Below are positions 24,040-56,956 of a DNA stretch of 61,120 nt, piece after piece. Made by a program: the position numbers and the translations under genes. Location: assembly GCA_964014485.1 (NCBI GenBank), contig CAXHAT010000014.1, positions 1 to 61,120 on the forward strand, in the 5' to 3' direction. Numbering within the stretch: the first letter of the stretch is position 1; every line of letters starts with the position of its first letter. This DNA comes from an uncultured Deferribacteres bacterium. Its GTDB lineage: Bacteria; Zhuqueibacterota; Zhuqueibacteria; Zhuqueibacterales; Geothermadaptataceae. The notes beneath the pieces were generated by a model. It did not search any database. It had not been told where the DNA came from and saw only the letters and a list, made by a program, of their open reading frames with translations.

Positions 24040-24756
24040 CTACACGATTATGTACAACGCGATACGGTCCACACTAATATTCAGATCAGATGAAGGTCTC
24101 GGTAAGCCCGTCGCGCTGAAGGTGATTTCAACGGCATCGATTTTGGATTCGAAAGATATCTTTTGCCCATTGCTAAGGTCTAAATCGCAAATGATTGTTT
24201 TATTACGAAAGCTAGCTATATGGCGATCACTTCCGCTGATTTTCAATTGGAACTTGCCGGTACTCAATATCTGTGGGCCGGACTCGATCTTGCATTCGAG
24301 TGAGTGTTCAGTAAGCGTCTGCCACTGCTGATCAACAACAGTAATTTGTTTTTCTGGCAAATCCTGTGTGTCAGTTGGTGCATCGAGCGTCCTGAGTGGT
24401 CGACGCAGAGCTAGTAATACAAGAAACTGATTGAGCTGTTGTCGAACTTTCTCTACTGCTTCCGCCGCTTCCGAATCCAAACGGGTTTCATTTTCTATGG
24501 CACGCTGCCACAATAGACCCACATTACCCATTCCAAACTTACCCTGCGGGAACAATGCGAACATCGCTACGACCGTCTGAAGCTTGAGTTCTGCCAGCTC
24601 ATCGCCAAGCCTTTCCAGGCATATATCACAGGATTGCAGGTGGCCTTCAATACGGCCCCTTCTTTCGGAGTCGAGTTGCCGCCGGGCGAAGGCTGGCAGC
24701 AGCTCCGTGATGTCACTGCAAGTCAATGGCGGGGGAAATTTTAATTTACTCATCAC
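24040..24756 (-). CDS. zf-HC2 (ZAS) anti-sigma-factor-like protein, soluble
   Basis: CSDITELLPAF...IEGHLQSCDIC (HxxxCxxC). Overlaps the upstream gene. Confidence 0.8.
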   Translation of the reverse strand: MMSKLKFPPPLTCSDITELLPAFARRQLDSERRGRIEGHLQSCDICLERLGDELAELKLQTVVAMFALFPQGKFGMGNVGLLWQRAIENETRLDSEAAEAVEKVRQQLNQFLVLLALRRPLRTLDAPTDTQDLPEKQITVVDQQWQTLTEHSLECKIESGPQILSTGKFQLKISGSDRHIASFRNKTIICDLDLSNGQKISFESKIDAVEITFSATGLPRPSSDLNISVDRIALYIIV

Positions 24757-26194
24757 TTATTTCCTCGCTAGAATGACGATCATCAAGGAATTCTTTAATA
24801 AGACCTACTAACTTGCTTGGTTTAGGTTTTAGAGATTCTAAGTCAGAAAGAAGCGATTTCAACCTTGGGTGTAAATCATCGATAAAATAACTATAGGAGC
24901 AGACAAACTCACGAAAGCCGCCTACACCGATACTCCATTCCGGCAAACCCAGCCGCCGGTCAATGAGCTGGCTTGGCGGCAAATCGCAAATTTCTGATAA
25001 TTCGAGTTGATAGAAATCATCGCTTTTCGGTGCAAACTTTGGGTATTGACTTGCGACATACCACTTCAGATAATCTCGAAGCGCCAGCAGTGTTTCCCTA
25101 GAATCTTCGTTTTTCAGCAAATCTATGCGCTCTTCACAGGCTGCAATGGCGGTAACTGCCTCATGCGCCTTCCACAGGTTCACCAAGTATTCGAAGCGTT
25201 CAGGCAGGCCAAATTCTATCCTGGCTAATTGTACACAGAACTGGCGCTTTCTCTGATAGAGAGATGCATCCGTCAGGTCGAGGGCGCGTTGCACGAACCT
25301 CCATAATTCGGATTCCCGATAAATGATCGAGTTGGTGTTAGCGTACTCGAACAGCTTCTCCACGCTCAACTCCCCGATCTTCTTTTGCAGAATTTCCAGG
25401 TCAATGAGTTCGTCAGTGAATCTGTCGATTTCCCTGCTGTTCTCAAAACGGCTGCGGTCGAAATAGTTCAGGGCTTCCCTAACCGTCAGTAGTGGAATTT
25501 CTTCCGCTGAAGTCGTCTGAATCTTTGTGAATTGATTCAACTCTTTTTTATCCAAATTTCCCGGATTAACAAGATGATTTAGAAGGTAATCATCGCTGCC
25601 TTCATAGACTATCTTTTTTATGAATAGAATCATGGCATTGGCAACATCTGCCAGCCTCGCTTGTCTTCTCTCGCCGAACAACTGTGCGATCATGGTCACA
25701 TCGGCAACTAACTCAACAACCGTATCCCGGGAGAGTTGCATCTCTAATTTGGTTGGATCGAGGTCGGGCAAGTCGACTTCAACGTCGCCATAAATGGATC
25801 TTTTCATCTCGCGAGCGATAAACTGACGAAGAATTTTTTGAAAAAGACGATGGAATTGCTCCCCACCGCGCCACTCGGCTGGATGATACTTTTGTACTAT
25901 TATTCGCCTCGCCGTTTCCCGGCCATAGTAACGCTTTTTCTTCTTCACAACCTTGACTTGCGTGAGAAAATGCCCGTCACTCATTTTTACATCTATTGCC
26001 TCCATCGCAGCCGAACAAGCATAAGCCGGATCGCCAATTTCGATATTCTGACCACCGCGATTTTTAATAAGCATTCGGCGCGCTAAACCACTTTCCGCTT
26101 TCTCCAAGCGAATTCGGCTCTCGTGAAAGTCTGCGACAACTTTTTGCCTCCACCCTTCGAACAGTTGCCTGGTGACCAGATTTGTTGGCATCAC
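24746..26194 (-). CDS. Hypothetical helical protein, possibly an extended atypical ECF sigma-like factor
   Basis: 482-aa ORF coupled to the zf-HC2 gene. Weak sigma2-like (FHRLFQKILRQFI) and HTH-like (VQRALDLTDASLYQRKRQF) segments. Confidence 0.5.
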   Translation of the reverse strand: MMPTNLVTRQLFEGWRQKVVADFHESRIRLEKAESGLARRMLIKNRGGQNIEIGDPAYACSAAMEAIDVKMSDGHFLTQVKVVKKKKRYYGRETARRIIVQKYHPAEWRGGEQFHRLFQKILRQFIAREMKRSIYGDVEVDLPDLDPTKLEMQLSRDTVVELVADVTMIAQLFGERRQARLADVANAMILFIKKIVYEGSDDYLLNHLVNPGNLDKKELNQFTKIQTTSAEEIPLLTVREALNYFDRSRFENSREIDRFTDELIDLEILQKKIGELSVEKLFEYANTNSIIYRESELWRFVQRALDLTDASLYQRKRQFCVQLARIEFGLPERFEYLVNLWKAHEAVTAIAACEERIDLLKNEDSRETLLALRDYLKWYVASQYPKFAPKSDDFYQLELSEICDLPPSQLIDRRLGLPEWSIGVGGFREFVCSYSYFIDDLHPRLKSLLSDLESLKPKPSKLVGLIKEFLDDRHSSEEISDE

Positions 26195-26254
26195 TTGTTT
26201 CCTTGTATTCTTATTGCGGCCCGATGAAACATATGTTGGGTCGTTCTTGCATAA

Positions 26255-28129
26255 CTACTCGCAGTTTTGGCAATACCGAAAACCAACTTGCGCATATCCC
26301 TTGTCGGCATCCCGTAGGCCGGAGGAGCTTGGTAGAGCGAATAAAGGATGATCTTCCCAACACCCTCCTTTGACGATCTGTTTGCCCTCTTCGGTACTAT
26401 CTGTCCACTCATAAACGTTGCCGCACATATCCCAAATACCTAGCGCGTTACATCCTCTTGGAAATTTAAAAACCGAGGTTTGGCCGCCATTTTTATTTTT
26501 AATATTAAGACACTGTGTATCAAACCGAGCCCCCCAGGGAAAGATTCGTCCGGCTCGCCCTCTTGCAGCAATTTCCCATTCATCGGCTGTTGGGAGCCTC
26601 GCGCCCATCCATTCGCAGTAATCGCGTGCGTCTTCGAGTGAAACGCAAACAACAGGATAATTCTGTTGGCCGTGGGGAAACGATGCGATCCCATCAGCAC
26701 TACGTTTCCAATTATCCGGCACCTTCCGGGTCGGCTTTGCATCAAGAAATATCTTATAATCCGCATTCGTAACTGGCCACTTCGAAATTAACAAGCCGCG
26801 GGACAGTTTAACCTTTCGCTGTTGTGCCATCGAGAGCAAACCCGCCAAACCAACACCCAGGTTCAATTTGTCGATAACTTCTTTTCGCTGCACTTCTGAC
26901 AAGCCGAGCTGATATTTTCCAGCAGAAACATGTGTCATCCTCTCGAAAGGTGCCAGGCACCGACCAAAGTGTACAGGTAAGGCCCAGTCAGGGCGATTCT
27001 CCAAAATTGAACTGATGGCAAATCTCGCTTCATGCAAACACGAACTCAATGGCTGCCACCTGACGACATGCTTCAAGAAGGCAAAATCAAAAGCTGTTGC
27101 GGCGTACAACGGAATCTCCGATTGCATGCCAATGACTGCATCAATGTTTGGTAGCTCTGCGATGACTCTTGCAGCTCCCCTGCCGGATCGCGATTCAAGC
27201 TCATCTGCAATCGTCGCAGAACGACACGAGCTTAGTACGACAACCCTGATCGATGAAGGTCGGAGCAGATCGCAAAGCTCTTCGATGTTTAAGGCTACAC
27301 CTCGACGCAGTGGTGTGCCGTCTTCGAGCAGCAGGAATGGTTCACACTTATCCGGATCAATAAAGCTGTGCCCGCAGAAGTATAGGATATCATATTCTGA
27401 TTGTAGCGCTGCTTTCAGGACTTTTTTGGTCACTTTGCGAAGGATCTTAAACTGGACTAAATCTTTGCCTACCTCGCGCTGAACATCAATAATGGCATCA
27501 TAATGAGCCAAATGATCGGTGAGTGGATACTCTACCTCGGCTTTGTACCATTTCCCATCCAGAGCGGTAAAACTGGGGCCGTATATGGGGTTGGATAACA
27601 TAACAAGTACACGTAGCGGGGGAGCGGATTTGAGGCGTTGATTCCCTGAGAGAGTCGATGGGAGGCGTACGATCGAAAAGCGTGGCTGCTTTATCAGGTA
27701 CAGCCCTTTTTCCATGTCAAACATCAATTCCCACGGAAGGCGCTCAAGATTCGGCGGCAGGTTTTGCAAAGCAATCGTGAGACATTCAACACGGCCTAGT
27801 GTTTTCGGGTGGGCCTGTAAAGCTTCGGTGTAAAGGCGTCGTGTCTCTGCATCATCATTGATCAAAATTCGAAAAAGTGCAGAACCTAACTCTCGCATAA
27901 GATTCCCGCTCTCCTCGCGCTGCAGAAGCAGTGAACTCAAGTCAGGTTCCAGTATGGAACGCCACAATTCGTTACTCGACTTGAGGAGATTGGATAATTC
28001 ATCCGGATCAAGCTTCAAATCCCGCCCTGGCAAGGGTTTTGTGCCCGTAAGAACAACCTCTTCGATTCGATATACTTTTGTTGTGCGGGATTGAAAACGG
28101 AAGCGGAGCATGTTATTTGTTTGAGTCAT
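26255..28129 (-). CDS. CHAT (caspase-like) protease fused to an FGE-sulfatase (SUMF1-like) domain
   Basis: CHAT motifs LPWELM, LRVLVMLSNP, YFCGHS (His) and VVLSSC (Cys). FGE motifs RLPTADEWE.AARG, FPWG, DMCGNVYEW and GFR. Confidence 0.9.
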   Translation of the reverse strand: MTQTNNMLRFRFQSRTTKVYRIEEVVLTGTKPLPGRDLKLDPDELSNLLKSSNELWRSILEPDLSSLLLQREESGNLMRELGSALFRILINDDAETRRLYTEALQAHPKTLGRVECLTIALQNLPPNLERLPWELMFDMEKGLYLIKQPRFSIVRLPSTLSGNQRLKSAPPLRVLVMLSNPIYGPSFTALDGKWYKAEVEYPLTDHLAHYDAIIDVQREVGKDLVQFKILRKVTKKVLKAALQSEYDILYFCGHSFIDPDKCEPFLLLEDGTPLRRGVALNIEELCDLLRPSSIRVVVLSSCRSATIADELESRSGRGAARVIAELPNIDAVIGMQSEIPLYAATAFDFAFLKHVVRWQPLSSCLHEARFAISSILENRPDWALPVHFGRCLAPFERMTHVSAGKYQLGLSEVQRKEVIDKLNLGVGLAGLLSMAQQRKVKLSRGLLISKWPVTNADYKIFLDAKPTRKVPDNWKRSADGIASFPHGQQNYPVVCVSLEDARDYCEWMGARLPTADEWEIAARGRAGRIFPWGARFDTQCLNIKNKNGGQTSVFKFPRGCNALGIWDMCGNVYEWTDSTEEGKQIVKGGCWEDHPLFALPSSSGLRDADKGYAQVGFRYCQNCE

Positions 28130-29727
28130 GGTATATTACGATCCGACCTGGTTTCGACCACTAATTTTGTATGCCCGTGGCGGATCTGCCTTGCCAGGTC
28201 AGCATATCTCACGTCAAGGCGCTCATTTTCTTCCAGGGCGTTTTGAAAAGCTTCTGTCTTGTCGCGGAGCTCGGACATCAGGTGTATGATCTTCTCTTCC
28301 TTGGATTGAATCGCCTTCTCCAGTTTGGCCACAGTCCTTTCGTCTACTTGGGCCTTCAGCCTGGCTTCCAGCTCATCTCTTTGCCTTGACAAGTTCCCCA
28401 CACGTGCTTTGAGGCCAATGACCCTGCGTTCAAGCCGTATGATGGAGTCTATTTGCTCTTCCACATCGGACCAAACCTCGGTTTCATGTCGCTTGCGCAG
28501 TTGTGAATCTACCGTTTGTAAATAGTAGGTACGATAATAAAGACCCTGCAAACCAATCTCTAGAGCGAGGCTTGTTTGAGGCAGGTTGGATAATTTAGTG
28601 ATGATAGGGTGTTTGACATTGAGAATAAACTTACCAGGTGCCTCCTTCACGGCCAGGTAATAATCCTTGAAAAACTCCCAGCCGCCTACAAAAAGTTCAT
28701 GTCGTTCATGCTTTAGATGTGTAATAAGCTTGGTGGCATTGCCAAGTAACGCGGTTGTTGTTTCTTGCGATATACCAATAACAGCGGGTGTATGGGAAAA
28801 ATCCCCGAATTCGAGTTCAATAAAACCCAAAAGATTGCTGTGCCACACTTCTTTGAGGAGCATATGCTGGCTCTTTATGAGTACATCATCTGCAAGTAGG
28901 GAGTCATCATGGGTATCGATGATGTCAACGCGTCGGTCTCGTGTTGCCTGAGATTCGAACAACAGTCGCAGGAAAATGGCAGGCTCTGTGGCATCGATGA
29001 CGACATCTGGCTCAAATAGGGATGCCGGATACTGCGAAGGCGACCTATGGATTGTCATAGCAAACATGTCCACGTTTTCACTCTCATCCAAACTATGCCA
29101 ATCGCCCAGGTATTTCTCAAAAGTCGTCTCTCCTGACTGAGTCTGTATCCAGAACGTTTCACCAATGTTTTTTTTGAGGGCTTCACTTACCATGGCAGCA
29201 ACAATAATGTCTGGCCAATATGAGAGAATTTGTTTGAGATCCTTGCGGCGCCGGGTCACGAGCACGTCAAACATTTCGGAAATAATTGTGGTCACCATTT
29301 TTCTAACTATTGCTTGCCATTCTTCCGGTGGCTGGACTGGAGAGCCTGATTCTGCAGAGTAGAATTGCAGCACCACACTGTAAAATAAAGACCAGATCGG
29401 CAACGTTTTTGCATTTCGTGAGATATACTTCCTATCGCTTATCCACACGTCGACGAAGCCGATTTCGGGTTCGCCATCGCTGGAAGGGCAGGCGGTTGCA
29501 GGGATGAATACGGCGCCTCGCATATTCAGGTCAGTATCATCCAAACCTATATCAAACGGCGTGAGGGTCAAAATATCGACCTCATACTGCTCTTCCAGCC
29601 ACAGCTTAATCACATCAGCTTGATGTTCTTTCCAGTTTGCCCAGAAGGTTGGCATTGTTCTGGTCTTTAGGGGGTTTTGTTCTTTTTGCTCTTCTTGTCG
29701 ATAGTCCAATAGTTTCAAAAACGACAA
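28126..29727 (-). CDS. Degenerate Hsp90/HtpG paralogue lacking the N-terminal ATPase domain, with a C-terminal coiled coil
   Basis: RGAVFIP, GFVDVWIS, LPIWSLF, TTFEKYL and LNVKHPII align by eye with the middle and C-terminal domains of the two adjacent HtpG proteins. No ELIQNA or DxGxGM motifs. Confidence 0.65.
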   Translation of the reverse strand: MSFLKLLDYRQEEQKEQNPLKTRTMPTFWANWKEHQADVIKLWLEEQYEVDILTLTPFDIGLDDTDLNMRGAVFIPATACPSSDGEPEIGFVDVWISDRKYISRNAKTLPIWSLFYSVVLQFYSAESGSPVQPPEEWQAIVRKMVTTIISEMFDVLVTRRRKDLKQILSYWPDIIVAAMVSEALKKNIGETFWIQTQSGETTFEKYLGDWHSLDESENVDMFAMTIHRSPSQYPASLFEPDVVIDATEPAIFLRLLFESQATRDRRVDIIDTHDDSLLADDVLIKSQHMLLKEVWHSNLLGFIELEFGDFSHTPAVIGISQETTTALLGNATKLITHLKHERHELFVGGWEFFKDYYLAVKEAPGKFILNVKHPIITKLSNLPQTSLALEIGLQGLYYRTYYLQTVDSQLRKRHETEVWSDVEEQIDSIIRLERRVIGLKARVGNLSRQRDELEARLKAQVDERTVAKLEKAIQSKEEKIIHLMSELRDKTEAFQNALEENERLDVRYADLARQIRHGHTKLVVETRSDRNIP

Positions 29728-29754
29728 TTATCATTGGCTGATTGTGCGATACAA

Positions 29755-31818
29755 TTATCCCTGCATCATCTGTTTTTGCAAATCCTTCACCTCATCCTTC
29801 AGATCTGCGTTTTCCTTTGTCAACGTCTTAACCTGACTCTCTAACTGTAGCTTTTTGGCTTTCTCATCCATATGCCACTTGGTCTGTTCACAAACTCTGG
29901 AGAGCACGTCGTTGTTCAACTCGTACACATGCTGTAGCATATCCTGGGTCATATCTTCCTGGGCAAACTGGCGTGCGCTGTGATAGATCTGATGCATTGC
30001 TGTAGTGGCGATCGAGCGAATCTCGGGAGGATAATCACTGGCCAGAATGTCGAGTATCTGCCGCAGGAGCTTGCTTTTTGCATTGAGGTTCAACGTCCCG
30101 GCGTGGGCGCCTGCGGTTGCATTCTCCACGAGGTTCTCAAACATGTCCCGCATTTCGTCAGGCAGTTCCTCGCCGTGCTTGCCGAGCATCTTTCGCCATG
30201 CCTGTACATTTTCTACTTCCTTACCGTAGGTCAAAATCGCCGGAATATCGGCAGGCTCGAACTGTACAGTCTTGACAAGCATGCGGCCGTCATGCGCAAT
30301 TCGGCGCAATTCATCTTCGAGCGGCCCCCATTCGACACGCTGCGTGTCATCCAAACTCTCAAACAGGTAGTCCGCGCCAATATCCAGCCTGCGCGCACGC
30401 ACATTATCCCGTATCTGGGCATAGTGCTCGAGGAATGGTGCATCGTAACGGCCGCTGGCATCGAGAACTTCGACATCTTTTTCCTGAAATAGCCGCACGT
30501 ATTGCGCGCGTGATTGGGGTTGGCTAAAATAGTAGATGACATCGCCTTCCTTGTCATTTCGCGTTTGAGCGCGCGCCAGGTAATCCGGCAAGGTGGTGCT
30601 GTTCACACGATCGCTTTGGAAGCGAATGATGTCGCAAACCGCTTTGAAAAATTTTTTTGACTTGAGAGCGCTCAGTTTGATATCGGTATCGTAAAGGAGA
30701 AGAATCCGGGACAAAGTGCCTCCTTGTTTCACTGCCATCTCGTGAATCTGACGAATGATCTCATCCTCCAGACTATTGCGAACGGCCTCGACAGAGGCAT
30801 CGTCACGACGTACATCTTCTCGGCTGACGAGGACGTTGATGGAGGGGGTATCGAGAATACCACTTATAAAAACCGCCCACTTCGGTAAAAGGTCGGACAT
30901 GTTGCTACGGATAAACATTCTACTCACATACAAATCTACCGTACCGTTAGGAATGTCTTCATCCGGGCGTGAAGGCACATAAAGTACACCGCCGATGCGT
31001 ACGTTTTTATGCTCAATTTTTTGCTCGATAGTGATCGGGAAAACAGCTACCGGCTCATCCCACTGATCGCCGTATCTTGCTTTGAGAAACTGCAGAAAGC
31101 CGGGAACGAGCTGTTCGCGCGATTGGTTCACCGCATCCGGCTCATGCCACGGCGCATTCATAACGTTGACGCGATCAAAACCGCGCGTGCCCATGTAAAT
31201 CGGAAATGAAATAAAATCCGCATACCGTTTTATGATATCGCGCAGGCGCTCATCCACGAGAAGATCAACGTGCTCACGTGAGATGTGCAGAGTCGTCTTG
31301 GTGCCGATCTTATCCCTCTTCTGTTTCGTCAGTTGATACTTACCATTACCATCACACTCCCATTTGTAACCCTGGCCACCTTCCGAGATCGACCGGGTTT
31401 CAACTTCTACTTTATCTGCAATCACGAAGGCCGCCAGCAAACCGAGTCCAAATGTGCCAATTAAACGGTACGCAGCCTCACGATCTTTTTGCTTTAAGAC
31501 ATTTCGGAATTCACGAGTACCACTCTTGCCGATGGTCGAAAGATATTTCTGAATATCCTCTTTGGTCATCCCGAGGCCGTCATCTTCGATGGACAAAACG
31601 CCTGCAGGATTAAAATTAATACGGATAGAAGGTGGCCGGCCACCCTGTTCAGTTCCTTCCAACTGCACTTGATGCCTAACGCACGCATCATTGGCGTTTT
31701 GAATCAGCTCCCTGAGTGCAATTTCGCGGTTCGAGTAGAGACTGTTGGCGAGCACTTTTACCAGGCCGGGAAGTTCGATTCCCATGTCGCTCACGATGAC
31801 ATCGTTCACTTCATTCAT
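29755..31818 (-). CDS. htpG: Hsp90/HtpG-family ATPase (paralogue 2) with a C-terminal coiled coil
   Basis: LYSNREIALRELIQNANDA, DDGLGMT, IGKSGT, IGTFGLG and VSRE (catalytic Arg). Confidence 0.88.
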   Translation of the reverse strand: MNEVNDVIVSDMGIELPGLVKVLANSLYSNREIALRELIQNANDACVRHQVQLEGTEQGGRPPSIRINFNPAGVLSIEDDGLGMTKEDIQKYLSTIGKSGTREFRNVLKQKDREAAYRLIGTFGLGLLAAFVIADKVEVETRSISEGGQGYKWECDGNGKYQLTKQKRDKIGTKTTLHISREHVDLLVDERLRDIIKRYADFISFPIYMGTRGFDRVNVMNAPWHEPDAVNQSREQLVPGFLQFLKARYGDQWDEPVAVFPITIEQKIEHKNVRIGGVLYVPSRPDEDIPNGTVDLYVSRMFIRSNMSDLLPKWAVFISGILDTPSINVLVSREDVRRDDASVEAVRNSLEDEIIRQIHEMAVKQGGTLSRILLLYDTDIKLSALKSKKFFKAVCDIIRFQSDRVNSTTLPDYLARAQTRNDKEGDVIYYFSQPQSRAQYVRLFQEKDVEVLDASGRYDAPFLEHYAQIRDNVRARRLDIGADYLFESLDDTQRVEWGPLEDELRRIAHDGRMLVKTVQFEPADIPAILTYGKEVENVQAWRKMLGKHGEELPDEMRDMFENLVENATAGAHAGTLNLNAKSKLLRQILDILASDYPPEIRSIATTAMHQIYHSARQFAQEDMTQDMLQHVYELNNDVLSRVCEQTKWHMDEKAKKLQLESQVKTLTKENADLKDEVKDLQKQMMQG

Positions 31819-33716: not shown

Positions 33717-33744
33717 TGTTTAATTCTCATCCCTGTTTCGAATG

Positions 33745-33777
33745 AATTTGTAACTATAAAAATTCGAGTTACAAATT
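33745..33777. promoter_or_regulatory. Putative operator upstream of the first htpG
   Basis: AATTTGTAACT-N11-AGTTACAAATT perfect inverted repeat in an AT-rich gap. Confidence 0.4.
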
Positions 33778-36236: not shown

Positions 36237-36247
36237 TCTCCTGAGCT

Positions 36248-36655: not shown

Positions 36656-36658
36656 ATT

Positions 36659-44460: not shown

Positions 44461-44461
44461 G

Positions 44462-48784: not shown

Positions 48785-48953
48785 CGTCTGCTCCTTTTCA
48801 TAAAAATTCTTCAAGATTTCTCGGGAGCGCGTGCGAGATGAGATTGAAATAGATGTTGGTCGTTCTTGTCACCGGTGCAATTCTTTCTAAAGACCCCAGG
48901 CGAGACGGAACGCGTTTTGAAGAAACCCGCAGCGAGCGTTAGTCGCCCTTTTT

Positions 48954-51900
48954 CTATTCTTTGCTCTTCTCTGACTTTTCTTCTGTTTTCAAAAAAGATT
49001 GCGCACGACTGGCAAGAGTATTTACAGGTGCTTTACCAGACAGCAATTGACTTATACGCTGCCTCCGCTCCGGGTCATTTCGGGTACACGTCTTAAACAA
49101 GTCCGAACGCCCAAATCCAAGGTCAATTATGATAAATTTATCTAGGCTTTCTTGTATCTTTTGGAAATCTTTATGATTCATTTGCGTTAGTTTCTTTTCG
49201 TAGAATTCGTCTAAGGCCTCTGAAATCGCTTTAAAATTCAGGTAGACTTGGTCACCTGAATCGAGCAAGCTCTGAACTCCAGCATTCGCGTGCCTTTCAA
49301 TATTTTCGCATACACGGTTCAGAAATTTCTTTATCCCGGTCGAGTGATTCGAGAAATGTATATAAAAACACAAATCAGCGGCACGCTTAACATAATCTGT
49401 TTCGCTCGGTGTCTTATAGTCTATCTCAACTCCCGGTTTAGGAAGCTCAGTATTGGCATTCGGTTTACTCTTCTGCAACATGCAATCCGCCAGGTGTTCG
49501 CAGTATTGGCTGTCACCGCCTTTAATCATGAATTCCAGAAGCTTATCATTTTTAGGATCGAGAGGTTTGACTCTCTCTTTGTGGAAGTCTGGATGCTTTT
49601 CAAAAATTAGATCGAGCATTTTGAACCACTGTAGATTTTTTCGTGGAACAAACTTCACTTTGTCCTTTTTCCAATTACTGATCGACGAATAACTGTACTG
49701 CAATTTCTTAAGTGTAGCAGTGGCGATATCATATGGGTTCTTTTTTTCATCTCCGCAAAATAGACCGCTCAGGATTTTTAGATCGAGTTGACGCGGTTTT
49801 GCGATCAGTTTTTTTGCTTGACTCTTTTGACCTTTTACGAAGCCGGAAACATCAAAAATCTTAACAAAGCGCGTCAAACGCCAATAGGCATCTTTTTGCT
49901 TGTAATGTTCATGGCGATGGTACTCACAGAGATATTCCAGGGCATCACACTGATATTTCTCGATTTGCTGCGCATATCTCCACCCATGGTCATAGGTCTT
50001 GATGCTTAAATGGCTCTGGTAAAACAGCCAAAAAATCTTCGCGATCTGATTCTGTTTGTCATAGGCACAGGCACGGCTTGCCAAATCAAGAATTCCTTTG
50101 TGCAGTGCTTTTTCACGGGGGTTAGGAGAGCCTGAATTGCCGTTTGCAATGCTATTGAGAGAGAAGAGTTGCTTTGCGATAGAAACCCAGACTCCACCTT
50201 TCTCAATCTTAAATCCGTCCTTTTCCAAGAGCTCTCTGAGATGCTCAAGGAGCGTGTTTTGCAAAAAAACGAAGTCATTGTTGTTTGAATTTTGCGTGTC
50301 CGATTTTAGATTCTTGATCACATTTGACATGCAGTCGTGATATATACTAGTTTCTCCTTCTTTCAACCAGTGGAAAAGCTGTGATGTCGCAGCTTCAATC
50401 TTGCTTTCAGATTTGGTGTTCTTATCGAATCGAAAACGAACTGTAAATTCAAACAGAAACGTCTCTGCATCCTGATACATGGGTTTGGACGATAAATGCC
50501 AAAAGTGGAAAAGTAGCGCCGGGTATGTTTCATGATTGATGAAAATCTCCAACGTGTCCTGCAGAAAGTCCTTATACTGCTTCCGTTTATTGTCAGGTAG
50601 AAAAGCTTGGCAAAGACCGTCAATTACGTCCTTTTCGGGTTCCTCTTTTTGAACTTTGCCGCGCAAATCATCGCTGCATTCTTTCAACAGCTCGGCGAGT
50701 TGGAGATGTTTGATTAGACTGAGGCTGCCTGGTGGCAGTAGTTCCTTGTCCTCGATAAGGAAGCCAACAATTTTATCGAGCAGGCGCTTGCGAACATTTA
50801 GAATGTCAGTGCGAGAAATCACCTCATTCACTCTGGAAGAGTCCATAAAACAGAATTCATAGTATTGGAATTCTTCAGCCAAAGGCTGTAAATGGAGTTG
50901 AAGTTTTTTCTCGTCGAGATAAATACAAAATGCGTAGACGAATTCTTCCATAACAAAGCCAGGATGGCTACGCAGTACCCTGTTGAAAATGGCAGCCAGT
51001 GACTTCTCGAATCCTTCAGCTTTCTTATCCGCACAAATAAAGACTGCCGTAAAATACTCGCTCAGTCGACTTTTGTCTGTTTGGTTGTGCACCCGTACTC
51101 CAGCAGAATCTGACATCGCTTTGATGATCTCAGTATTCAGCCGCTGCGTGAGTTCTTCTTTAATTCTGGGCTTATCTTCTTGCTCGATAAAAGTTTCTAG
51201 GAGCGATTTTGGTAAGTCCAATTCGCTCCCGAGTTGAGGCAATCGAGCTATGAGTGGGAAATAAGAATCGTCGAGAATTTTAGCCTGCTCCTGTTCGTGC
51301 GTCTGCTCATAAATTCGGATCGTGCAAGCAATTTTGTCACTAGGAGAGAGGCTGCAAGTTCCTATAAAAGCCAAAAGCGTACTCACGCATGACTTGGTGT
51401 TGGCTTCCGGAATCGCATCATACAGCACCAGGATTTCAGCAATCAACTCATCCCCCTGCAACGTTTTACTTCCGGGTTCGCTCAACATCCGGATGAAACG
51501 CTGGTACCATTGCCTTTCCGGATCTCCTGCCACCGGTTCTTTCGATGTCATCCAAGCTATCTGTTGTTTGAGTTTTAGCGAATTTAAAACGCATCTTGCG
51601 ATTTCCTTCTTCCCCCCTACATCCCAGAGCAGCAAACCCTTTAACAAACTCCAATATTCTGAATCCTGCTCCGCTTTGTTGATGATTTTACCCCAAAGCA
51701 GCACAGGCTCGCATCGACTGATTTTATTGGAATGATTATCAACAAAGCTGGCAAAACCATCAAAAACAAGTTTATAAAAGTCGCGAATTTCATCTTGTTC
51801 CACCTTCCATGTTGAAGATTGGGCCAATAGTTCTGCTAGTGCATCCAAGATAGGTGGTCCGGCTTTCGTAAGAATCGCCGGCCCTAAAGTCTGGCGAAAT

Positions 51901-53066
51901 GCCGTCTCAATAAACTTCTTATCAATTTTATGCGAATATTGTGCGCGCATTTGAGTGAGGTGGAACAAGCTCTGCATGACACGCAGCGGTTCATCGAAAG
52001 GAGCATTTTGCGCTGTTGTCCCCAAAATCCTGGTGACTTCTTGCAGAAAAGAAACTGAATAAAATTGGGGTGTTTGGTGTGGATTCGGCCGTTGCCCTTG
52101 ACGAACGTGAGTACGGTAAGCCTGCAGGAGTTGATCGGTTTTAGCCCTGCCGTGATAACCAAAGAAACTGCCCAGGATAGTGACATTGTCATTTCGGCGT
52201 TTAATTTTCTCCATGGTCAAAGGAAGGTCGCTTTTGCTGCCATAGCGCGTTGGCAGGGGGCCAAAATCCGTATAAGCATCAGCACTAAAATCGAAACCGA
52301 ATGCGCTGTGACCAAGCATGTTTTGAGTGATTGGCGCCCGGAGTGAGTGCCTCAGAATCAGCCAATTAAACCCGGGCATGCGCGGCAAGGTGCGCCCGGT
52401 CCAAAATTGTACCTTCTTACGCTGAGCATCGGAGATCCACGACCAAATTACGCGAAACAAGTGAATGCCGTTTTCATCACTCGTCGCTTCATCTTCAGGT
52501 GGTTTCGGGTGAATCACGAGGTATTGCGCTGTTTTATCATCCAATGCTTTTTCGCCTGCGAAGACCAAATGGCTAAGCAACTTGTCATTAGCCCCCGTCC
52601 CAGTAGCCACATAGTTGGCCGCCTGTTCGAGCGTATTCGAATCGATGAGCCTTTCAACTGGAATTGGATCCTTTAATGTATCGACAGACTCGCCGTCCCA
52701 TCCATCTCTCCAGCCGCTCCATTTACTAAAAATGCTCAAGGCATCATACTGGTAAAATTTATCTTTGTCCTGCTCATCTACAATGAGCACATGCGCAAAG
52801 ATGTTGCCTGGGCGATTGTCCGCTGATTTTCCGGCATCCCGAATCCGAATGAGCGCCGGTAGATCGCCAATGGTTTGTAGTGAAAATAACAAGAATCCCT
52901 TGGGCAAGTTTTCGGCTTCCGGAATCGTCAGGCAGGTTTTTAAACGATGGTCCCAGAGTCGAAAATAGTCTTTGTCACTTGCCCAAACAATTTGCCAGCC
53001 CTTCTGCTGGTGATAAACACCTTTGGTGGCATGTGTATAAAACAGTTGCTTAAATCCCAGGGTCAT
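48954..53066 (-). CDS. GTPase-associated protein 1 (GAP1-N2-like N-terminus) with a long helical C-terminus
   Basis: QLFYT...GWQ...DAGKSADNRPGNIFAHVL signature. ATGA overlap with the upstream gene. Confidence 0.75.
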   Translation of the reverse strand: MTLGFKQLFYTHATKGVYHQQKGWQIVWASDKDYFRLWDHRLKTCLTIPEAENLPKGFLLFSLQTIGDLPALIRIRDAGKSADNRPGNIFAHVLIVDEQDKDKFYQYDALSIFSKWSGWRDGWDGESVDTLKDPIPVERLIDSNTLEQAANYVATGTGANDKLLSHLVFAGEKALDDKTAQYLVIHPKPPEDEATSDENGIHLFRVIWSWISDAQRKKVQFWTGRTLPRMPGFNWLILRHSLRAPITQNMLGHSAFGFDFSADAYTDFGPLPTRYGSKSDLPLTMEKIKRRNDNVTILGSFFGYHGRAKTDQLLQAYRTHVRQGQRPNPHQTPQFYSVSFLQEVTRILGTTAQNAPFDEPLRVMQSLFHLTQMRAQYSHKIDKKFIETAFRQTLGPAILTKAGPPILDALAELLAQSSTWKVEQDEIRDFYKLVFDGFASFVDNHSNKISRCEPVLLWGKIINKAEQDSEYWSLLKGLLLWDVGGKKEIARCVLNSLKLKQQIAWMTSKEPVAGDPERQWYQRFIRMLSEPGSKTLQGDELIAEILVLYDAIPEANTKSCVSTLLAFIGTCSLSPSDKIACTIRIYEQTHEQEQAKILDDSYFPLIARLPQLGSELDLPKSLLETFIEQEDKPRIKEELTQRLNTEIIKAMSDSAGVRVHNQTDKSRLSEYFTAVFICADKKAEGFEKSLAAIFNRVLRSHPGFVMEEFVYAFCIYLDEKKLQLHLQPLAEEFQYYEFCFMDSSRVNEVISRTDILNVRKRLLDKIVGFLIEDKELLPPGSLSLIKHLQLAELLKECSDDLRGKVQKEEPEKDVIDGLCQAFLPDNKRKQYKDFLQDTLEIFINHETYPALLFHFWHLSSKPMYQDAETFLFEFTVRFRFDKNTKSESKIEAATSQLFHWLKEGETSIYHDCMSNVIKNLKSDTQNSNNNDFVFLQNTLLEHLRELLEKDGFKIEKGGVWVSIAKQLFSLNSIANGNSGSPNPREKALHKGILDLASRACAYDKQNQIAKIFWLFYQSHLSIKTYDHGWRYAQQIEKYQCDALEYLCEYHRHEHYKQKDAYWRLTRFVKIFDVSGFVKGQKSQAKKLIAKPRQLDLKILSGLFCGDEKKNPYDIATATLKKLQYSYSSISNWKKDKVKFVPRKNLQWFKMLDLIFEKHPDFHKERVKPLDPKNDKLLEFMIKGGDSQYCEHLADCMLQKSKPNANTELPKPGVEIDYKTPSETDYVKRAADLCFYIHFSNHSTGIKKFLNRVCENIERHANAGVQSLLDSGDQVYLNFKAISEALDEFYEKKLTQMNHKDFQKIQESLDKFIIIDLGFGRSDLFKTCTRNDPERRQRISQLLSGKAPVNTLASRAQSFLKTEEKSEKSKE

Positions 53067-54829
53067 TGGCCGATCCCGGTTAAAGTCAGTTTGTTTTGCA
53101 AAGCGTCGTCGATCATAACATCGATCCATCTTGGCGCATAATCGAAATGGCTGCCATTAGAACTCCATGGCAAAATATGAAATCGCAGATCATCAACCAT
53201 GGAATCCAATTGATGATAGATTTGGGGTACTCGACGTCGCACCGCCTGTGCTGCTATTGGATCATTTGCCGGATTAAAGGCCACCCAGGGGCGTACTTTG
53301 AACTGAGATTCGCGTTCCTGGATCTCCATCACGTGCAAAATCGGGGGGCGATGATCGGCGGACGCATCTAATGCCCGAATGATTTGGCTAATCGTCACCA
53401 GATCTTTGTTTATTGGGCTGTCAACGACGTTATCATCATAAATTGGATTGAACCATTGATTGGGGACAATCCAAATAAACATATCTTGGCGTGCCTGCAT
53501 GCGAAACGAGCCAATATAAAATGAGTTGAGATCATCCTGAGACTTGTCTGGGTTGACTTCTGAAAAGTGAATTAAGGTAGGTTCATCCACGTTCGCTTCA
53601 GGGCTGACTTTGAGCAGTTGCGTGGCGGTATCATTATCCACTTCGTACGCGATTTTCTTTGTTTTCAGGTGGGCATAGCGGACTGGCCAGCGTTCATGTA
53701 AGTTGCGTGACATAGTCGAAAACATTGCGCTTTTCTTTTCTTCACCTAAAACAGTAATTTGCAAGTCGGCAAAGTAGTTGGAGCGGATTGTAAAGGCTTG
53801 TAGTTCGCGCAGGAAAGCGGATAAATAAGTTGATGAATCAGACAACAAATCAACCCGGACGAGCAGTTGATTCATAGCGGCCGTAGCAAATTCAATGCGA
53901 TTTGCTGAATAGGCAATTTCCTTATAGATAAAGGAGCAGGTCATTTTTTTGCTGGAGACATAATCGTGAAACAAGTGGTATAGAACCAGGTCAAAGTCCC
54001 TCAAGTCCTTCAATCCGAGCTGGCGCAGAGCACGTTGGTATCTTTTCGGCTGATCTATTTTCAGGACTGGGATTTGTCTCAGCTCCTCGAATCGTCTTGG
54101 GCTGATAGTGGTTCCAAGAAAGATGAAATGCACAGATTCGATCCAGCAGAAATTTTTCGTTTTTTGCAGCACCTCACTGACACGCTTATGCAATGTACTA
54201 CGATATTCGCCGCGCCCTTTTTTTGTTTTTTTTGTAAGAAAATCATCGTCCATCACGATGACCAAATGGTTTAACTCAGTTGGCTTGAGTTCGCGCGGAA
54301 ATGGGTCCGCATCCGTCTCTTCATTTTGATCCACTTCGCTGGCTTGTTCATTCTTATCACTTTGCTCTTCATCTTCAGCGGGTTCCGGTTTAGGAAAAAG
54401 GTGATTTCCGAGCTCCAGACTCGACGCAGGTAATGGCCCAATATTCAATGTCGTGCATTCGATTGTAACTTCGTTCTGCAAGTAAAAATGGGCAAACGGG
54501 GGCTGTGCAAGCAGATATCGAACAGGTTCAAGAACCGGAGCTTTTGGTTCATCTTCCCTGGGTGGGGGGGCAGGTTTTTGCCATGAAGCAGGCAAGAACG
54601 CCAAGAGTTTTCGTAATAGGCGAAGGGAAGGCGATTCTTGTTTCTTCGCAAGTTCAGGTTGCCTCGGCTCTGGCGCGGCTGGTTGCTTCGGATTTTGAAC
54701 TTCAAAAGACGCGCTATCGACCAGGAGGCTGAAATCGGCATGCGACTGCAATATGCGTTTCAATACGCGCGACGTGGAATCGGCGGTATTATGCGGTACA
54801 TCCATAAAATAAAGTTTGACTTTTTTCAT
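53063..54829 (-). CDS. Hypothetical protein, possibly an inactive double GTPase-fold protein
   Basis: 588-aa ORF between the GTPase and GAP1. Alternating strand/helix pattern with two eroded P-loop-like starts (KLYFMD..., QITVLGEEKKS). No GKT/S motif. Confidence 0.5.
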   Translation of the reverse strand: MKKVKLYFMDVPHNTADSTSRVLKRILQSHADFSLLVDSASFEVQNPKQPAAPEPRQPELAKKQESPSLRLLRKLLAFLPASWQKPAPPPREDEPKAPVLEPVRYLLAQPPFAHFYLQNEVTIECTTLNIGPLPASSLELGNHLFPKPEPAEDEEQSDKNEQASEVDQNEETDADPFPRELKPTELNHLVIVMDDDFLTKKTKKGRGEYRSTLHKRVSEVLQKTKNFCWIESVHFIFLGTTISPRRFEELRQIPVLKIDQPKRYQRALRQLGLKDLRDFDLVLYHLFHDYVSSKKMTCSFIYKEIAYSANRIEFATAAMNQLLVRVDLLSDSSTYLSAFLRELQAFTIRSNYFADLQITVLGEEKKSAMFSTMSRNLHERWPVRYAHLKTKKIAYEVDNDTATQLLKVSPEANVDEPTLIHFSEVNPDKSQDDLNSFYIGSFRMQARQDMFIWIVPNQWFNPIYDDNVVDSPINKDLVTISQIIRALDASADHRPPILHVMEIQERESQFKVRPWVAFNPANDPIAAQAVRRRVPQIYHQLDSMVDDLRFHILPWSSNGSHFDYAPRWIDVMIDDALQNKLTLTGIGQ

Positions 54830-54846
54830 ATGTAGCCGTTCCAGGG

Positions 54847-56262
54847 TTACAATAATTGGCTCTTTGAAAAGTCGCTATTGTCTGCATTGGCATCTGGGGG
54901 TATATCTGTCTGTGGCTGTTGATCTAAACTTTCAGGAGCATCATACGGGCGGAATTTGCCCATCTTCCAAAGCATCCAATAAAATGGGTCTTCCACCCGA
55001 ATAGGCTCTATTTTTTCTTCCAATTTGTTTCCGGCTGCCGGCGGATGCCCAAGAGAACTGACGCCAAAATAGCCAATATTACTCTCCTCATCGTTTGCGA
55101 GATAGCTCAATAGGCCAGAAATTTCAGGATGATATGTTTCAACATAATCCTTGACTTCCCGATTGATTTCTCTGAAATCATCAATGCAAAACTCGCCCGC
55201 ATTATAATGAGGTGATTTTTGCCACAAATGTGAATCCGGACCGAAATGGCTGAATTCGGTTCCTTTAAAAATGTCAACCTTATTTACAACTACAGCCACA
55301 AGTTTCTTCTGCAATTCATCCTCATGGTGACCGGAACGGTCAATTATATTGACGACCTGGTGTAGGACAGCTTGATCCCGTAGGCAATCCGCACCGTCTT
55401 CAGGGTTGTTTGCTTCAACATTGAGGGTTGACACAATCTCCTCACTATTTGTGGGATCCAAAAACAAAAGAATGCCCCCAACTTCGGTAAAGTATTGGAT
55501 AATTGCGTTTTTATCGTCTTCCAGTTCAAATGATTCACCAGAATAGTCGTACCATAAGGTATATGTTTTTTGGTTGGCACTGCCATCCCGGGTTATTGTG
55601 CGCAAAAGGTAGGGTTTGGGCGTCTCACCAGGTTGAGTAGGCTGGAGCATTTTTTGTTCTTTGTAAAGTCTGTTATTTTTCTGCAGGAAGTTTGCAAAAT
55701 CGTCATGTTCCGAAAAGTGACTAATGACTTTGAACTGGTCTTTGATGATCGAATTATTGAGTAGATGACGGATCAAGACTGTCATATAAATTGACTTACC
55801 AGAAGAGCCAATACCAGCGGGTGCGATCGTATTTTGCAACTCTTCCTTCGTCAACCGGGGGATCGCCTTTCGGCAGTGCGGGCAAGCGTAAAAATAGAAG
55901 CGTTGTCTGCAAGTAGGGCAAGTATGTGACTTTCCTTTGAGAATGTCTTCAACGGGAAACTCTTCATAATGCGTATCTGAATAGTTTACCCTGGTTTCCG
56001 GGCGCAAAAGTATTTGACGGGGGCCAAATGCTGGGGCGAAATCCATGGTATCGGTATCCATGTAAAACACATCGGTGTTGGAACATTTCTTTGAGGTGCA
56101 TAAGCCGAGAAAATCATCATACCAAAATTCAAGATGGCAGTTCATGCAGCGGCAGTCGCCATTCTCGTTGATGTTTTTTATCACAGGAGGACTTAAAAGC
56201 TGGGGTTCAGCGTTTTCTTGTGATTTTTTCCCACCCTGAAAAACTTTGCTTAAAATGCCCAT
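54847..56262 (-). CDS. TRAFAC-clade GTPase with N-terminal zinc ribbons (GAP1-system type)
   Basis: G1 GIGSSGKS, G3 YDYSGE, FLDP, G4 VNKVD, G5 VSSLG. CMNC, CPTC and CPHC pairs. GGAG RBS before ATG 56262. Confidence 0.85.
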   Translation of the reverse strand: MGILSKVFQGGKKSQENAEPQLLSPPVIKNINENGDCRCMNCHLEFWYDDFLGLCTSKKCSNTDVFYMDTDTMDFAPAFGPRQILLRPETRVNYSDTHYEEFPVEDILKGKSHTCPTCRQRFYFYACPHCRKAIPRLTKEELQNTIAPAGIGSSGKSIYMTVLIRHLLNNSIIKDQFKVISHFSEHDDFANFLQKNNRLYKEQKMLQPTQPGETPKPYLLRTITRDGSANQKTYTLWYDYSGESFELEDDKNAIIQYFTEVGGILLFLDPTNSEEIVSTLNVEANNPEDGADCLRDQAVLHQVVNIIDRSGHHEDELQKKLVAVVVNKVDIFKGTEFSHFGPDSHLWQKSPHYNAGEFCIDDFREINREVKDYVETYHPEISGLLSYLANDEESNIGYFGVSSLGHPPAAGNKLEEKIEPIRVEDPFYWMLWKMGKFRPYDAPESLDQQPQTDIPPDANADNSDFSKSQLL

Positions 56263-56275
56263 AGTATATCTCCTG

Positions 56276-56956
56276 CTATCGATCGCCTTCATTCAAAATA
56301 ATTTGAGAATATTCGTTGCCCCGGCCTGCAGCCATCTGTAAAATTTTTAAGCTCTGCGCACTTTTTCTGCCATAAACGAAATCATAGGCTGCCTCGCCTA
56401 GCCAATAGCCTGAATCAATACCGAGCTCAGCAGCGGTGCTCAGTGCCCATTCGCGTTCCATTGCCGTTAAATTTCGGTAAATTGCTGCGAAGCGCGACAT
56501 TCTGAGAGCATCCTCCTTTCTTTCGACACCTAAATAGCTTCCTTTAAGATCGAGAAAACCTTGAGCGACAATCGCCGCCTCCTCATCTGTATGTCTGCCG
56601 CGGATCAGCAGCACACGTCTTTTGTTGGATTCTTTCTGTTTCTCAGGTGTTGAGGCGTTATGTACCCGCCTATGCGTTGGAAACCGTTGCACTTGCGTGA
56701 TGTACCACTGCTCAATTTTGGCAGGATTTTGGGGATCGGTCTGCATCATCTTCTCAAGTCTTTTTTTAACCACACGAATCGAAGAACCTTCTTTTGTAAA
56801 AACGTTCTCTTTTTCTGCTGCCGGGCTTTTCATTTTTAACCAGATCCAGAAAAAAGTAGCAATCAAACCCAGACATCCGGCCATAATAAGATAAATAATC
56901 ATGAAGATAGTCCTTATAAAAATGGACAATAGATCGAATGAGCCAAAACCAATCAA
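56276..56956 (-). CDS. Hypothetical membrane-anchored protein with Sel1-like C-terminal helices
   Basis: N-terminal TM helix. LSTAAELG..SGYWLG and LQMAAGRGN motifs. Start uncertain. Confidence 0.6.
   Translation of the reverse strand: MIGFGSFDLLSIFIRTIFMIIYLIMAGCLGLIATFFWIWLKMKSPAAEKENVFTKEGSSIRVVKKRLEKMMQTDPQNPAKIEQWYITQVQRFPTHRRVHNASTPEKQKESNKRRVLLIRGRHTDEEAAIVAQGFLDLKGSYLGVERKEDALRMSRFAAIYRNLTAMEREWALSTAAELGIDSGYWLGEAAYDFVYGRKSAQSLKILQMAAGRGNEYSQIILNEGDR

Follow-up and report, generated by a model that had tools for sequence, protein, structure and literature searches.

A rare GTPase/GAP1-N2-type gene core with its own chaperones and a ZorAB-like pair in an uncultured Deferribacteres bacterium

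Question and outline

Do the 19 consecutive genes at positions 24040-56956 of a 61,120-nt stretch from an uncultured Deferribacteres bacterium (Zhuqueibacterota; contig CAXHAT010000014.1, assembly GCA_964014485.1) form one conflict system, and of what kind? Throughout the text this whole stretch is called the window, its 8.4-Mb genome is designated G000, and the genes, all on the minus strand, are labelled g1-g19 from right to left. The cluster combines a GTPase/GAP1 module with Clp-, Hsp70- and Hsp90-like chaperones, a kinase, a ZorAB-like membrane pair and a caspase-like protease, and the original prediction, made from the letters alone, had taken its 33 kb as a single unit. Comparison with other genomes shows that the cluster consists of two parts, a conserved core (g1-g13, 33892-56956) and a tail (g14-g19, 24040-33716); g1-g13 alone recur together and are the conserved unit, and the tail was detected in no other carrier. 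Judged by its sequence, the core is a rare new version of a class of conflict systems known from prediction only, the GTPase-centric systems of the GAP1-N2 type.

Gene organization of the cluster

The open reading frame (ORF) listing shows an uninterrupted series of 19 minus-strand ORFs from 56956 down to 24040, and the start/stop overlaps on which the original prediction had drawn are present in the sequence (ATGA at 53063-66, 31815-18 and 28126-29; TGATG at 34623). The overlap at 53063-66 places the start of g4 at 53066 (Met22 of the longest ORF) instead of 53129, and ortholog comparison points to 48784 as the likely start of g5, the longest ORF of which extends to 48814. With these likelier starts, the intergenic spacing is at most 60 nt throughout, save for the g4-g5 (169 nt) and g13-g14 (175 nt) gaps. 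The G+C content is 44.8% in the core, 48.0% in the tail and 50.2% in the whole genome. Scans of 20 window proteins against Pfam, PADLOC and NCBIfam returned family-model matches for the GAP1-N2, Clp, kinase, Hsp70, OmpA/MotB, CHAT and zf-HC2 domains and for two HtpG-like proteins, all of which had been called from the sequence; g1, g3, g8, g9, g16 and g18 have no Pfam family match and, as had been expected, no complete PADLOC system was matched. Neither tRNA genes nor Rfam families were found in the window. Its terminator-like sites number 18 and 20, compared with 19.3 and 18.9 in shuffles, and no minus-strand site of this type lies inside the g13-g14 gap; the promoter scan was uninformative. 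The core genes are the following.

g1, 56276..56956, minus strand: small protein, a single membrane helix predicted at residues 17-35, no Pfam family
g2, 54847..56292, minus strand: P-loop GTPase of the DO-GTPase-like type, in which two Cys clusters near the N-terminus resemble zinc ribbons
g3, 53063..54829, minus strand: conserved protein of no known family, between the GTPase g2 and the GAP1 protein g4
g4, 48954..53129 (likely start 53066), minus strand: GAP1 protein with a GAP1-N2 domain and a hypervariable C-terminal region of ~730 amino acids (aa)
g5, 45779..48814 (likely start 48784), minus strand: Clp/Hsp100-like double AAA+ ATPase with a unique N-terminal extension
g6, 44462..45778, minus strand: Ser/Thr protein kinase with catalytic motifs present and a helical C-terminal region (Pkinase 161 bits)
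g7, 40276..44475, minus strand: conserved scaffold-like protein of 1,399 aa with weak TPR-type signals (ANAPC3 19.8 bits)
g8, 39765..40262, minus strand: small protein with a weakly J-domain-like N-terminus
g9, 39279..39761, minus strand: small protein modelled as a long helix plus beta-hairpin, possibly GrpE-like
g10, 36659..39256, minus strand: divergent Hsp70 of 865 aa, comprising an ATPase domain, a beta region that resembles a substrate-binding domain and a C-terminal domain of helices
g11, 36248..36655, minus strand: small zinc-ribbon and TPR-like protein with CxxC pairs at residues 16 and 30
g12, 34623..36236, minus strand: ZorA/MotA-like membrane protein with three predicted membrane helices and a long helical cytoplasmic tail
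g13, 33892..34623, minus strand: ZorB/MotB-like protein with one membrane helix and an OmpA peptidoglycan-binding domain

Recurrence and rarity of the core

In a scan of one genome per species, Hsp70-like relatives of g10 were found at 67 loci, and when their ORFs were compared with the 20 proteins of the window (phmmer), neighbours in common with the window appeared at 2/67 loci only. In a Lewinellaceae metagenome-assembled genome (MAG; G042, locus L004 and, on contig C4, L072), the gene order is g1-g11, a gene for a TIR protein of 750 aa, g12 and g13, followed by a prolyl-tRNA synthetase gene on the opposite strand. In a Fibrobacterota MAG (locus L003), g5-g11 are followed by a TIR gene (744 aa), g12, g13 and a second Hsp70-like gene (683 aa), and a 1,174-aa ORF upstream of the Clp gene, at the contig end, compares with GAP1 at E 0.09. 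A genome of the window organism's own family (G009, 67% complete) carries the genes on three short contigs as g2-g3-g4, g5-g6-g7 and g8-g9-g10-g11-TIR. A TIR gene thus follows g11 in 3/3 other loci; no window ORF resembles these TIR proteins at E<=1, and the window has a g11-g12 spacing of 11 nt only. This effector, carried by the relatives and lacking in the window copy, had been missed in the earlier reading. The flanks of the Lewinellaceae and Fibrobacterota loci carry other genes and not the tail, and conserved synteny across phyla, proposed earlier as a check, was found for the core (Lewinellaceae MAG, Fibrobacterota MAG and G009) and not for the tail. A homolog of g1 occupies the same position in the Lewinellaceae locus (56 bits). 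The orthologs of g4 can be aligned over residues 17-664 only, whereas the remaining parts of the system align end to end with 34-55% identity.

The core is rare. A GAP1 relative was detected in 2/41 genomes, the window's own counted, and a real relative of g7 in 2/167 genomes of the phylum, G000 counted, the third match reaching 18 bits only; among the 301 genomes of the order of the Lewinellaceae MAG, g7 occurs in one, which is that MAG. No relative was retrieved by metagenome scans with g12 and g7 alignments, nor was there any match in a plasmid collection searched with g7 and g4 (tblastn). For the C-terminal half of g10, a word-indexed search across 5.8 billion proteins retrieved three other relatives only, and the g3 family comprises 10 representative clusters among 1.84 billion proteins. 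The nearest relatives of g10, P0002 and P0003, are encoded on contigs of 21.5 and 24.6 kb and share 57% and 52% identity, respectively, with its C-terminal region, P0002 reaching 68% over 830 columns of the tree alignment. In the tree constructed with FastTree (SH-like support, no bootstrap, and long branches that call for caution), the Hsp70s linked to the system group in a clade of 8, far from DnaK, sister to Armatimonadota/Acidobacteriota sequences and then to a 60-sequence clade, mostly of Myxococcota. Within the clade of 8 the nearest relative of the window sequence is not G009 and, together with the very patchy distribution of GAP1, g7 and g3 across phyla, this suggests horizontal spread.

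About 60 loci (L005-L069, mostly of Myxococcota) encode Hsp70-like proteins of ~760-880 aa with the same C-terminal extension, ~28-35% identical to g10. These genes are located in unrelated, mostly unannotated neighbourhoods, with tandem pairs at L053 and L007 (Armatimonadota, Acidobacteriota), and no defence-type Pfam families were detected among the neighbours scanned at two of the loci.

The GTPase/GAP1 module

The sequence of g2 contains the motifs GIGSSGKS at residue 160, D249-x-x-G-E253 and N-K-V-D at residues 337-340, and is 49% identical to that of its G042 ortholog. Its two Cys clusters (C47/C49/C52/C65/C70 and C125/C128/C137/C140), predicted to form zinc ribbons, are invariant in two aligned orthologs. 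Protein g4 matches the GAP1-N2 family PF20013 with 36.2 bits (cut-off 24), the sole GAP1-N2 match in the genome, and its orthologs in G009 and G042 score 32.4 and 20.0 bits, respectively. The protein between them, g3, has orthologs in G042 and G009, and its residues ~310-570 possibly form a degenerate P-loop (pseudo-GTPase) domain; a low-confidence Atlas model resembles SRP54/FlhF/MinD folds, which is taken as a lead only. An origin of g3 as a paralog of g2 was considered and rejected (BLASTP null, hhalign probability 2.7%).

Chaperones, kinase and scaffold of the core

The genome encodes a housekeeping set of chaperones on other contigs, with DnaK on C359 (908 bits), HtpG on C63 (384 bits), grpE-dnaJ on C10 and Clp paralogs on C7 and C123, and the chaperones of the cluster are therefore extra copies and not the housekeeping ones. 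The cluster Hsp70 and Hsp90 proteins share 27-32% identity with the DnaK and HtpG of the genome, and g5 shares 26-32% with the Clp paralogs. With the genome's own DnaK, HtpG and GrpE-DnaJ elsewhere and the distribution of the cluster patchy, its predicted conflict-system character, as opposed to a housekeeping one, is supported.

The Hsp70, g10, scores 235 bits with PF00012 and 232 bits with the DnaK NCBIfam model (cut-off 648), keeps the ATPase motifs in an alignment with the genome's DnaK, and has a linker of eight prolines at residues 616-623. The Clp-like g5 matches AAA_2 with 142 bits and the ClpA/ClpB NCBIfam models with ~300 bits, far under the cut-offs (303 vs 1232 for ClpB). Compared with the genome's ClpB, its ring 1 is degenerate, Lys of Walker A being replaced by R397 and Glu of Walker B by Gly (D456-G457), and its ring 2 is intact (GTGKT and DE present). 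The ring 1 changes are found in the Lewinellaceae (L004) ortholog as well, so that the dead ring is a conserved feature. Residues K62, H165-R-D167 and D185-F-G187 of the kinase g6 were read from the sequence, and we take them to be the VAIK Lys, HRD and DFG motifs, respectively. The large protein g7 is 34-35% identical to its G042 and G009 orthologs end to end; no fn3 or DnaJ match was found in it, and a PDB profile search gave one weak TPR row only. The ortholog of g11 in L004 matches TPR_19 and Zn_ribbon_3.

GrpE and J proteins had also been named as members of the cluster, and these calls were not borne out by family models, since Pfam GrpE (E<=10) and DnaJ (E<=1) have no match in the contig or window; g9 and g8 are weak leads. 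A four-sequence alignment of g8 compared with 21 J-domains by hhalign gave a probability of 34% (E 4.3e-4), residues 8-33 falling on J positions 3-28, which correspond to helices I-II of the J-domain, and four control comparisons were non-significant. The HPD motif, functional in J-domains, is found in none of the four g8 orthologs. No Pfam match was obtained for g8, and PDB sequence searches with g8, as with the g9 profile, gave chance-level matches only. The AlphaFold2 model of g9 is of moderate to poor confidence (pLDDT 62), and its three best Foldseek matches in the PDB are all GrpE chains, at non-significant values (E 0.36-0.88; 1dkg_B with E 0.36 and TM 0.42); the comparison of the g9 profile with 22 GrpE sequences was likewise non-significant (E 0.18).

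The ZorAB-like pair

Protein g12 was matched by PADLOC ZorA3 (E 5e-7), by NCBIfam ZorA_4 (25 bits vs a cut-off of 500) and, weakly, by MotA_ExbB (18.9 bits), and in a profile search against the PDB its tail retrieved coiled-coil proteins only. Protein g13 was matched by OmpA (43.4 bits) and PADLOC ZorB1 (E 8e-11); its membrane helix contains an acidic residue, E18, and the orthologs read E/E/D at this position (3/3 acidic). None of ZorC, ZorD, ZorE, ZorF and ZorG has a PADLOC match among the 20 proteins scanned.

The tail, the g13-g14 gap and a shared motif

The tail genes and the two non-coding elements associated with the cluster are listed below.

inverted repeat, 33748..33774, no strand assigned: perfect, in the AT-rich 175-nt g13-g14 gap upstream of g14
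g14, 31815..33716, minus strand: Hsp90/HtpG paralog a, ATPase motifs intact (NCBIfam HtpG 325.5 bits vs a cut-off of 371)
g15, 29755..31818, minus strand: Hsp90/HtpG paralog b, ATPase motifs intact, C-terminal coiled coil (HtpG 334.4 bits vs 371)
g16, 28126..29727, minus strand: Hsp90 middle-domain-like remnant with a coiled coil at its end
g17, 26255..28129, minus strand: CHAT (caspase-like) protease with a C-terminal FGE-sulfatase/FGS domain (CHAT 67 bits, FGE-sulfatase 125.6 bits)
g18, 24746..26194, minus strand: protein of 482 aa with no Pfam, NCBIfam or PADLOC match
g19, 24040..24756, minus strand: protein without a membrane helix, with a zf-HC2 motif of the zinc anti-sigma type near its N-terminus (H39-x3-C43-x2-C46; PF13490 31.7 bits)
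~24-nt motif, copy 1, 48845..48871, minus strand: in the g4-g5 gap
~24-nt motif, copy 2, 26225..26249, minus strand: in the g17-g18 gap

Proteins g14 and g15 are 39% identical to each other, and both keep the four Hsp90 motifs in an alignment with the genome's HtpG. The third of the three Hsp90 genes originally counted, g16, is not a full paralog: it aligns with g15 residues 272-480 only (25% identity over 214 residues, E 6e-7, BLASTP), is without the entire ATPase domain and the SRE motif, and retrieved no protein but itself when the 5.8 billion proteins were searched by word index. In g17, His254 and Cys302 were read from the sequence and presumably form the CHAT catalytic His/Cys pair; a second gene with CHAT and FGE-sulfatase domains is located elsewhere in the genome (G000:C343) and its product is 31-33% identical to g17. 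The last two genes had been proposed to encode a sigma/anti-sigma pair, of which the anti-sigma half agrees with the zf-HC2 motif of g19. The sigma half was rejected: g18 compared with an ECF-sigma profile, built on 30 sigma ORFs of the same genome, at an hhalign probability of 0.4% and had no hmmsearch match at E<=10, 0/51 genome matches to Sigma70_r2 fall in this contig, and a sigma cluster accounts for 1/30 of the Atlas neighbours of g18, which is the chance level.

The inverted repeat reads TTGTAACT, 11 nt, AGTTACAA, with arms of 8 nt as searched and 11 nt by eye. It was the one match in the window, and in the control 18/100 shuffles yielded at least one match at the 3-mismatch setting. 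The ~24-nt motif, CAAGAACGACC(C)AACATnTnTTTCA on the coding strand, is absent from the orthologous loci; its 15-nt core (<=1 substitution) has two sites only in the 8.4-Mb genome, and the next-best matches need four edits. The motif was found post hoc, with the chance of such a pair in the ~500 nt of cluster spacers roughly estimated at <1e-3, and it may serve both sites as a promoter, an operator or an RNA element.

Genes around the cluster

To the left of the cluster (window 7278-16045), defence-like or mobile-type genes are present, as are XRE-type regulators.

RuvC-like gene, 7278-7829
PIN gene, 8169-8582
HerA/TrwB-like ATPase gene, 8983-10242
gene for an N6-methylase fused to an SNF2 helicase, 10952-14326
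PD-(D/E)XK nuclease gene, 15263-16045

Beta-propeller and Ig-repeat proteins with type IX secretion sorting tails (Por_Secre_tail) are encoded at 18296-21899 and 1322-1972, and indicate an organism of the FCB group. Upstream of the cluster (58890-60687), there are genes for a response regulator of the LuxR type and for a histidine kinase with HisKA_3, and a similar pair lies upstream in G042; the response regulators were considered as conserved partners of the system and rejected, as those of the window and G042 are 26% identical only. In the Lewinellaceae locus (L072:9806-14956), a CHAT protease gene and a gene for a ParA-NB-ARC-TPR fusion run directly into g1. An architecture of the ParA-NB-ARC-TPR type has been described for TIR-ParA/STAND immune proteins (bioRxiv 10.64898/2026.10.19.760177).

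Proposed explanation and alternatives

As a whole, the locus is best explained, in a judgement that leans to this side without being firm, by assuming that g1-g13 are one rare, horizontally spread anti-invader system built on the GAP1-N2/DO-GTPase scheme, in which the tail probably replaces TIR. From what was observed (the gene set and its order, the recurrence, the state of the catalytic motifs and the extra-copy chaperones), we infer a mechanism of the following kind. The peptidoglycan-anchored, ion-driven ZorAB-like stator g12/g13 would sense envelope disturbance and signal via its long cytoplasmic tail, and a threshold switch would be formed by g2 (GTPase), g3 (pseudo-GTPase-like) and g4 (GAP1), with the hypervariable C-terminal half of GAP1 as the most plausible specificity module. 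The private Hsp70 g10 with the J-like g8 and GrpE-like g9, and the unfoldase g5 with its one live ring, may hold or remodel a client on a g7/g11 scaffold, and the kinase g6 may tune or amplify the signal. The output would be a suicide or dormancy effector, namely the TIR protein in the three other loci, the gene for which would have been lost in the window. In the weakest step of this scheme, the tail (24040-33716) would have taken the effector role, the CHAT-FGS protein g17 acting as effector and the Hsp90 proteins serving it as switch or maturation machine; that the tail took over the role of TIR is somewhat likelier than that it did not. Considerably more tentative, and in our view unlikely, is the idea that the effector is gated by its own chaperone machine, whereby the stator and the GTPase/GAP1 module would license the private Hsp70/Clp set, and in the window also the Hsp90 set, to act on an executioner of the TIR or caspase-like type by unfolding, assembling or releasing it, an arrangement that we would take to be a prokaryotic counterpart of chaperone-dependent NLR/inflammasome activation.

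Several observations weigh against the single-system explanation, and those concerning the tail point to two neighbouring systems, i.e. a TIR-less, perhaps crippled GAP1-N2 core next to an independent Hsp90-NTPase/caspase module in a defence island, which we regard as a distinct possibility, albeit one that falls short of being probable. Searches of the three other carriers (G009, G041 and G042) did not reveal the tail: the Hsp90 matches in G009 and G042 are HtpG-type genes of 25-31% identity only, G041 has none, and 166 other genomes of the phylum contain no g15-like gene at E<=1e-60. The G+C content of the tail differs from that of the core (48.0% vs 44.8%), and the two are parted by the AT-rich 175-nt gap with its operator-like palindrome. 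The nearest database relative of g15 is 41% identical, and its relatives are a sparse group of divergent Hsp90s, many of 850-900 aa, including one fused to TPRs and one with a TIR-like family, which suggests, as far as their sequences go, a self-standing Hsp90-based system; HSP90-like NTPases can stand in for STAND NTPases in tripartite immune proteins, according to the available part of a preprint (Aravind group, 2026). Set against two systems are the common strand of core and tail, the ~24-nt motif that occurs only in the g4-g5 and g17-g18 gaps and is thereby common to core and tail, the coincidence of TIR loss with the gain of a protease effector (the sole TIR-less copy is the sole copy with a tail), and the CHAT gene that adjoins the core in the Lewinellaceae MAG too. 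On these grounds the integration of the tail in the system appears mildly probable. Other points against the single-system explanation concern the core itself. The GrpE-like reading of g9 and the J-like reading of g8 rely on non-significant or weak signals. The match of g2 to PF19993 (DO-GTPase2) has 21.8 bits (E 1.7e-4), under the Pfam cut-off of 27, and its G042 ortholog has no PF19993 match; like the MotA (18.9 bits) and ZorA3 (E 5e-7) matches of g12 it is weak, and the architecture of g12/g13 fits that of ZorA and ZorB. The Fibrobacterota contig ends upstream of g5, leaving the GTPase/GAP1 part out of view, and frameshifts break each of its g5, g6 and g7 orthologs into two to four ORFs (L003:372-8956), which may reflect decay or sequencing error. 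None of the 19 proteins matched the Pfam fn3 or DnaJ models at E<=0.01, an FNIII protein thus being undetected, and no experiments on any GAP1-N2 system were found in the literature searched.

That the cluster is not immune at all, and instead encodes a specialised envelope-stress, protein-quality-control or developmental signalling machine with a stator-like sensor, a kinase and private chaperones, is improbable. All of its enzymes are chaperones, switches or kinases with no classic nuclease among them, no complete PADLOC system was matched, and genes of two-component regulators precede the cluster in the window and in G042 alike, all of which would fit such a machine; the TIR and CHAT effectors, the GAP1-N2 signature with the hypervariable GAP1 C-terminus, the extremely patchy distribution across phyla, the G+C content under that of the genome, the defence-like neighbours and the mere 26% identity of the response regulators do not. 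It is also hardly credible that core and tail adjoin only through an assembly error in the metagenome-assembled contig. The difference in G+C content would agree with an artefact, as would the fact that no single Logan contig spans the whole junction. However, the sequence was found in three DNA runs of one study, labelled marine metagenome, with no RNA run listed for it, and independent short contigs from these runs match it without difference or joint, covering 33576-33726 and 33717-34069 with similar depth on both sides.

The 13-14 conserved genes that recur across at least two phyla are a defined minimal unit that is concrete to clone, and the GAP1-N2 systems, known only from comparative genomics, are linked here to a ZorAB-type motor, a sensor class of known structure. 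The relatives with TIR and the window without TIR, with a CHAT protease and Hsp90s alongside, offer a natural comparison of effectors. If chaperones did gate the effector, this would be the first bacterial defence with Hsp70/Hsp100/Hsp90-type machines as regulatory parts and not host factors, and ZorAB-type motors would be exchangeable sensors used outside Zorya. If the tail is separate, the window still provides an example of a rare caspase module built on Hsp90 and, beside it, of a core system found at a stage where its effector is missing.

Comparison with known systems

The cluster chaperones have the same folds as the housekeeping DnaK, ClpB and HtpG, with intact ATPase motifs in g10, in ring 2 of g5 and in g14/g15. 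They differ in scores far under the ortholog cut-offs, in the absence of an HPD J-domain and of a GrpE family match, and in the inactive Clp ring 1. The long Hsp70-like proteins of Myxococcota, Armatimonadota and Acidobacteriota resemble g10 in having an Hsp70 part plus a C-terminal domain (~28-37% identity) and are its sister groups in the tree, but no other cluster gene lies within 10 kb of them, and weak kinase-domain matches occur in some of their loci.

In Zorya, ZorAB forms a 5:2 motor in which the ZorA C-termini make up a cytoplasmic tail, and function requires peptidoglycan binding, the tail and ion flow, as stated in the available text of Mariano et al. (2025, PMC11890865). The g12/g13 pair shares with Zorya a MotA-like protein with a long C-terminal tail, a MotB-like protein with an OmpA domain and an acidic residue in the membrane helix, and the overlap of the two genes. 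In contrast, the Zorya effector set (ZorC/D, ZorE or ZorF/G) had no PADLOC match, the pair is located inside a GTPase/chaperone system, and the score of g12 falls far short of the NCBIfam ZorA model (25 vs 500 bits). Literature searches for defence systems joining Hsp70, TIR, MotA, Clp and GTPase, or ZorA with Hsp70, returned nothing relevant.

The closest comparison is with the GTPase-centric conflict systems, predicted and defined by a DO-GTPase together with GAP1 (Kaur et al. 2020, eLife, PMC7159879). According to the main text of that paper, systems of the GAP1-N2 type usually comprise a GTPase that bears two zinc ribbons at its N-terminus and a protein with FNIII repeats, for which fast evolution is stated, along with variable parts. 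The paper distinguishes three "non-overlapping" themes, with tubulin, with HSP70 and GrpE, or with an active kinase; in the HSP70-GrpE theme, found mostly in actinobacteria and firmicutes, the FNIII protein is fused to DnaJ or TPR. FGS effectors are given for planctomycete GAP1-N2 systems, FGS always being the C-terminal partner in fusions, and g17 follows this rule, with its partner domain (CHAT) first and FGS at the C-terminus. The same main text does not contain the words MotA, HtpG and Hsp90, nor does it present a Clp-like ATPase with a dead ring, a ZorAB-like pair, a 1,399-aa scaffold or TIR, although its source data may list variants. The core is thus not entirely new, as GAP1-N2 with HSP70 plus GrpE or with a kinase figures in Kaur et al. 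(2020), whereas no PADLOC system matches the cluster as a whole.

As far as that text allows the comparison, the window shares with the GAP1-N2 systems a GTPase with predicted zinc ribbons upstream of a GAP1-N2 protein, an extra Hsp70, a variable GAP1 C-terminus, a small, possibly GrpE-like protein, a large TPR-type protein, membrane-associated parts and a patchy distribution. Unlike the HSP70 theme of actinobacteria and firmicutes, it belongs to an FCB-type lineage, with relatives in Bacteroidota and Fibrobacterota, it yielded no match to FNIII, canonical GrpE or DnaJ, and its GTPase and GAP1 genes have g3 between them. Whereas the themes described by Kaur et al. (2020) are non-overlapping in their main text, the window unites the HSP70 and kinase themes and adds to the GAP1-N2 scheme g3, the ATPase g5 with its dead ring 1, the ZorAB-like pair and, in the relatives, TIR.

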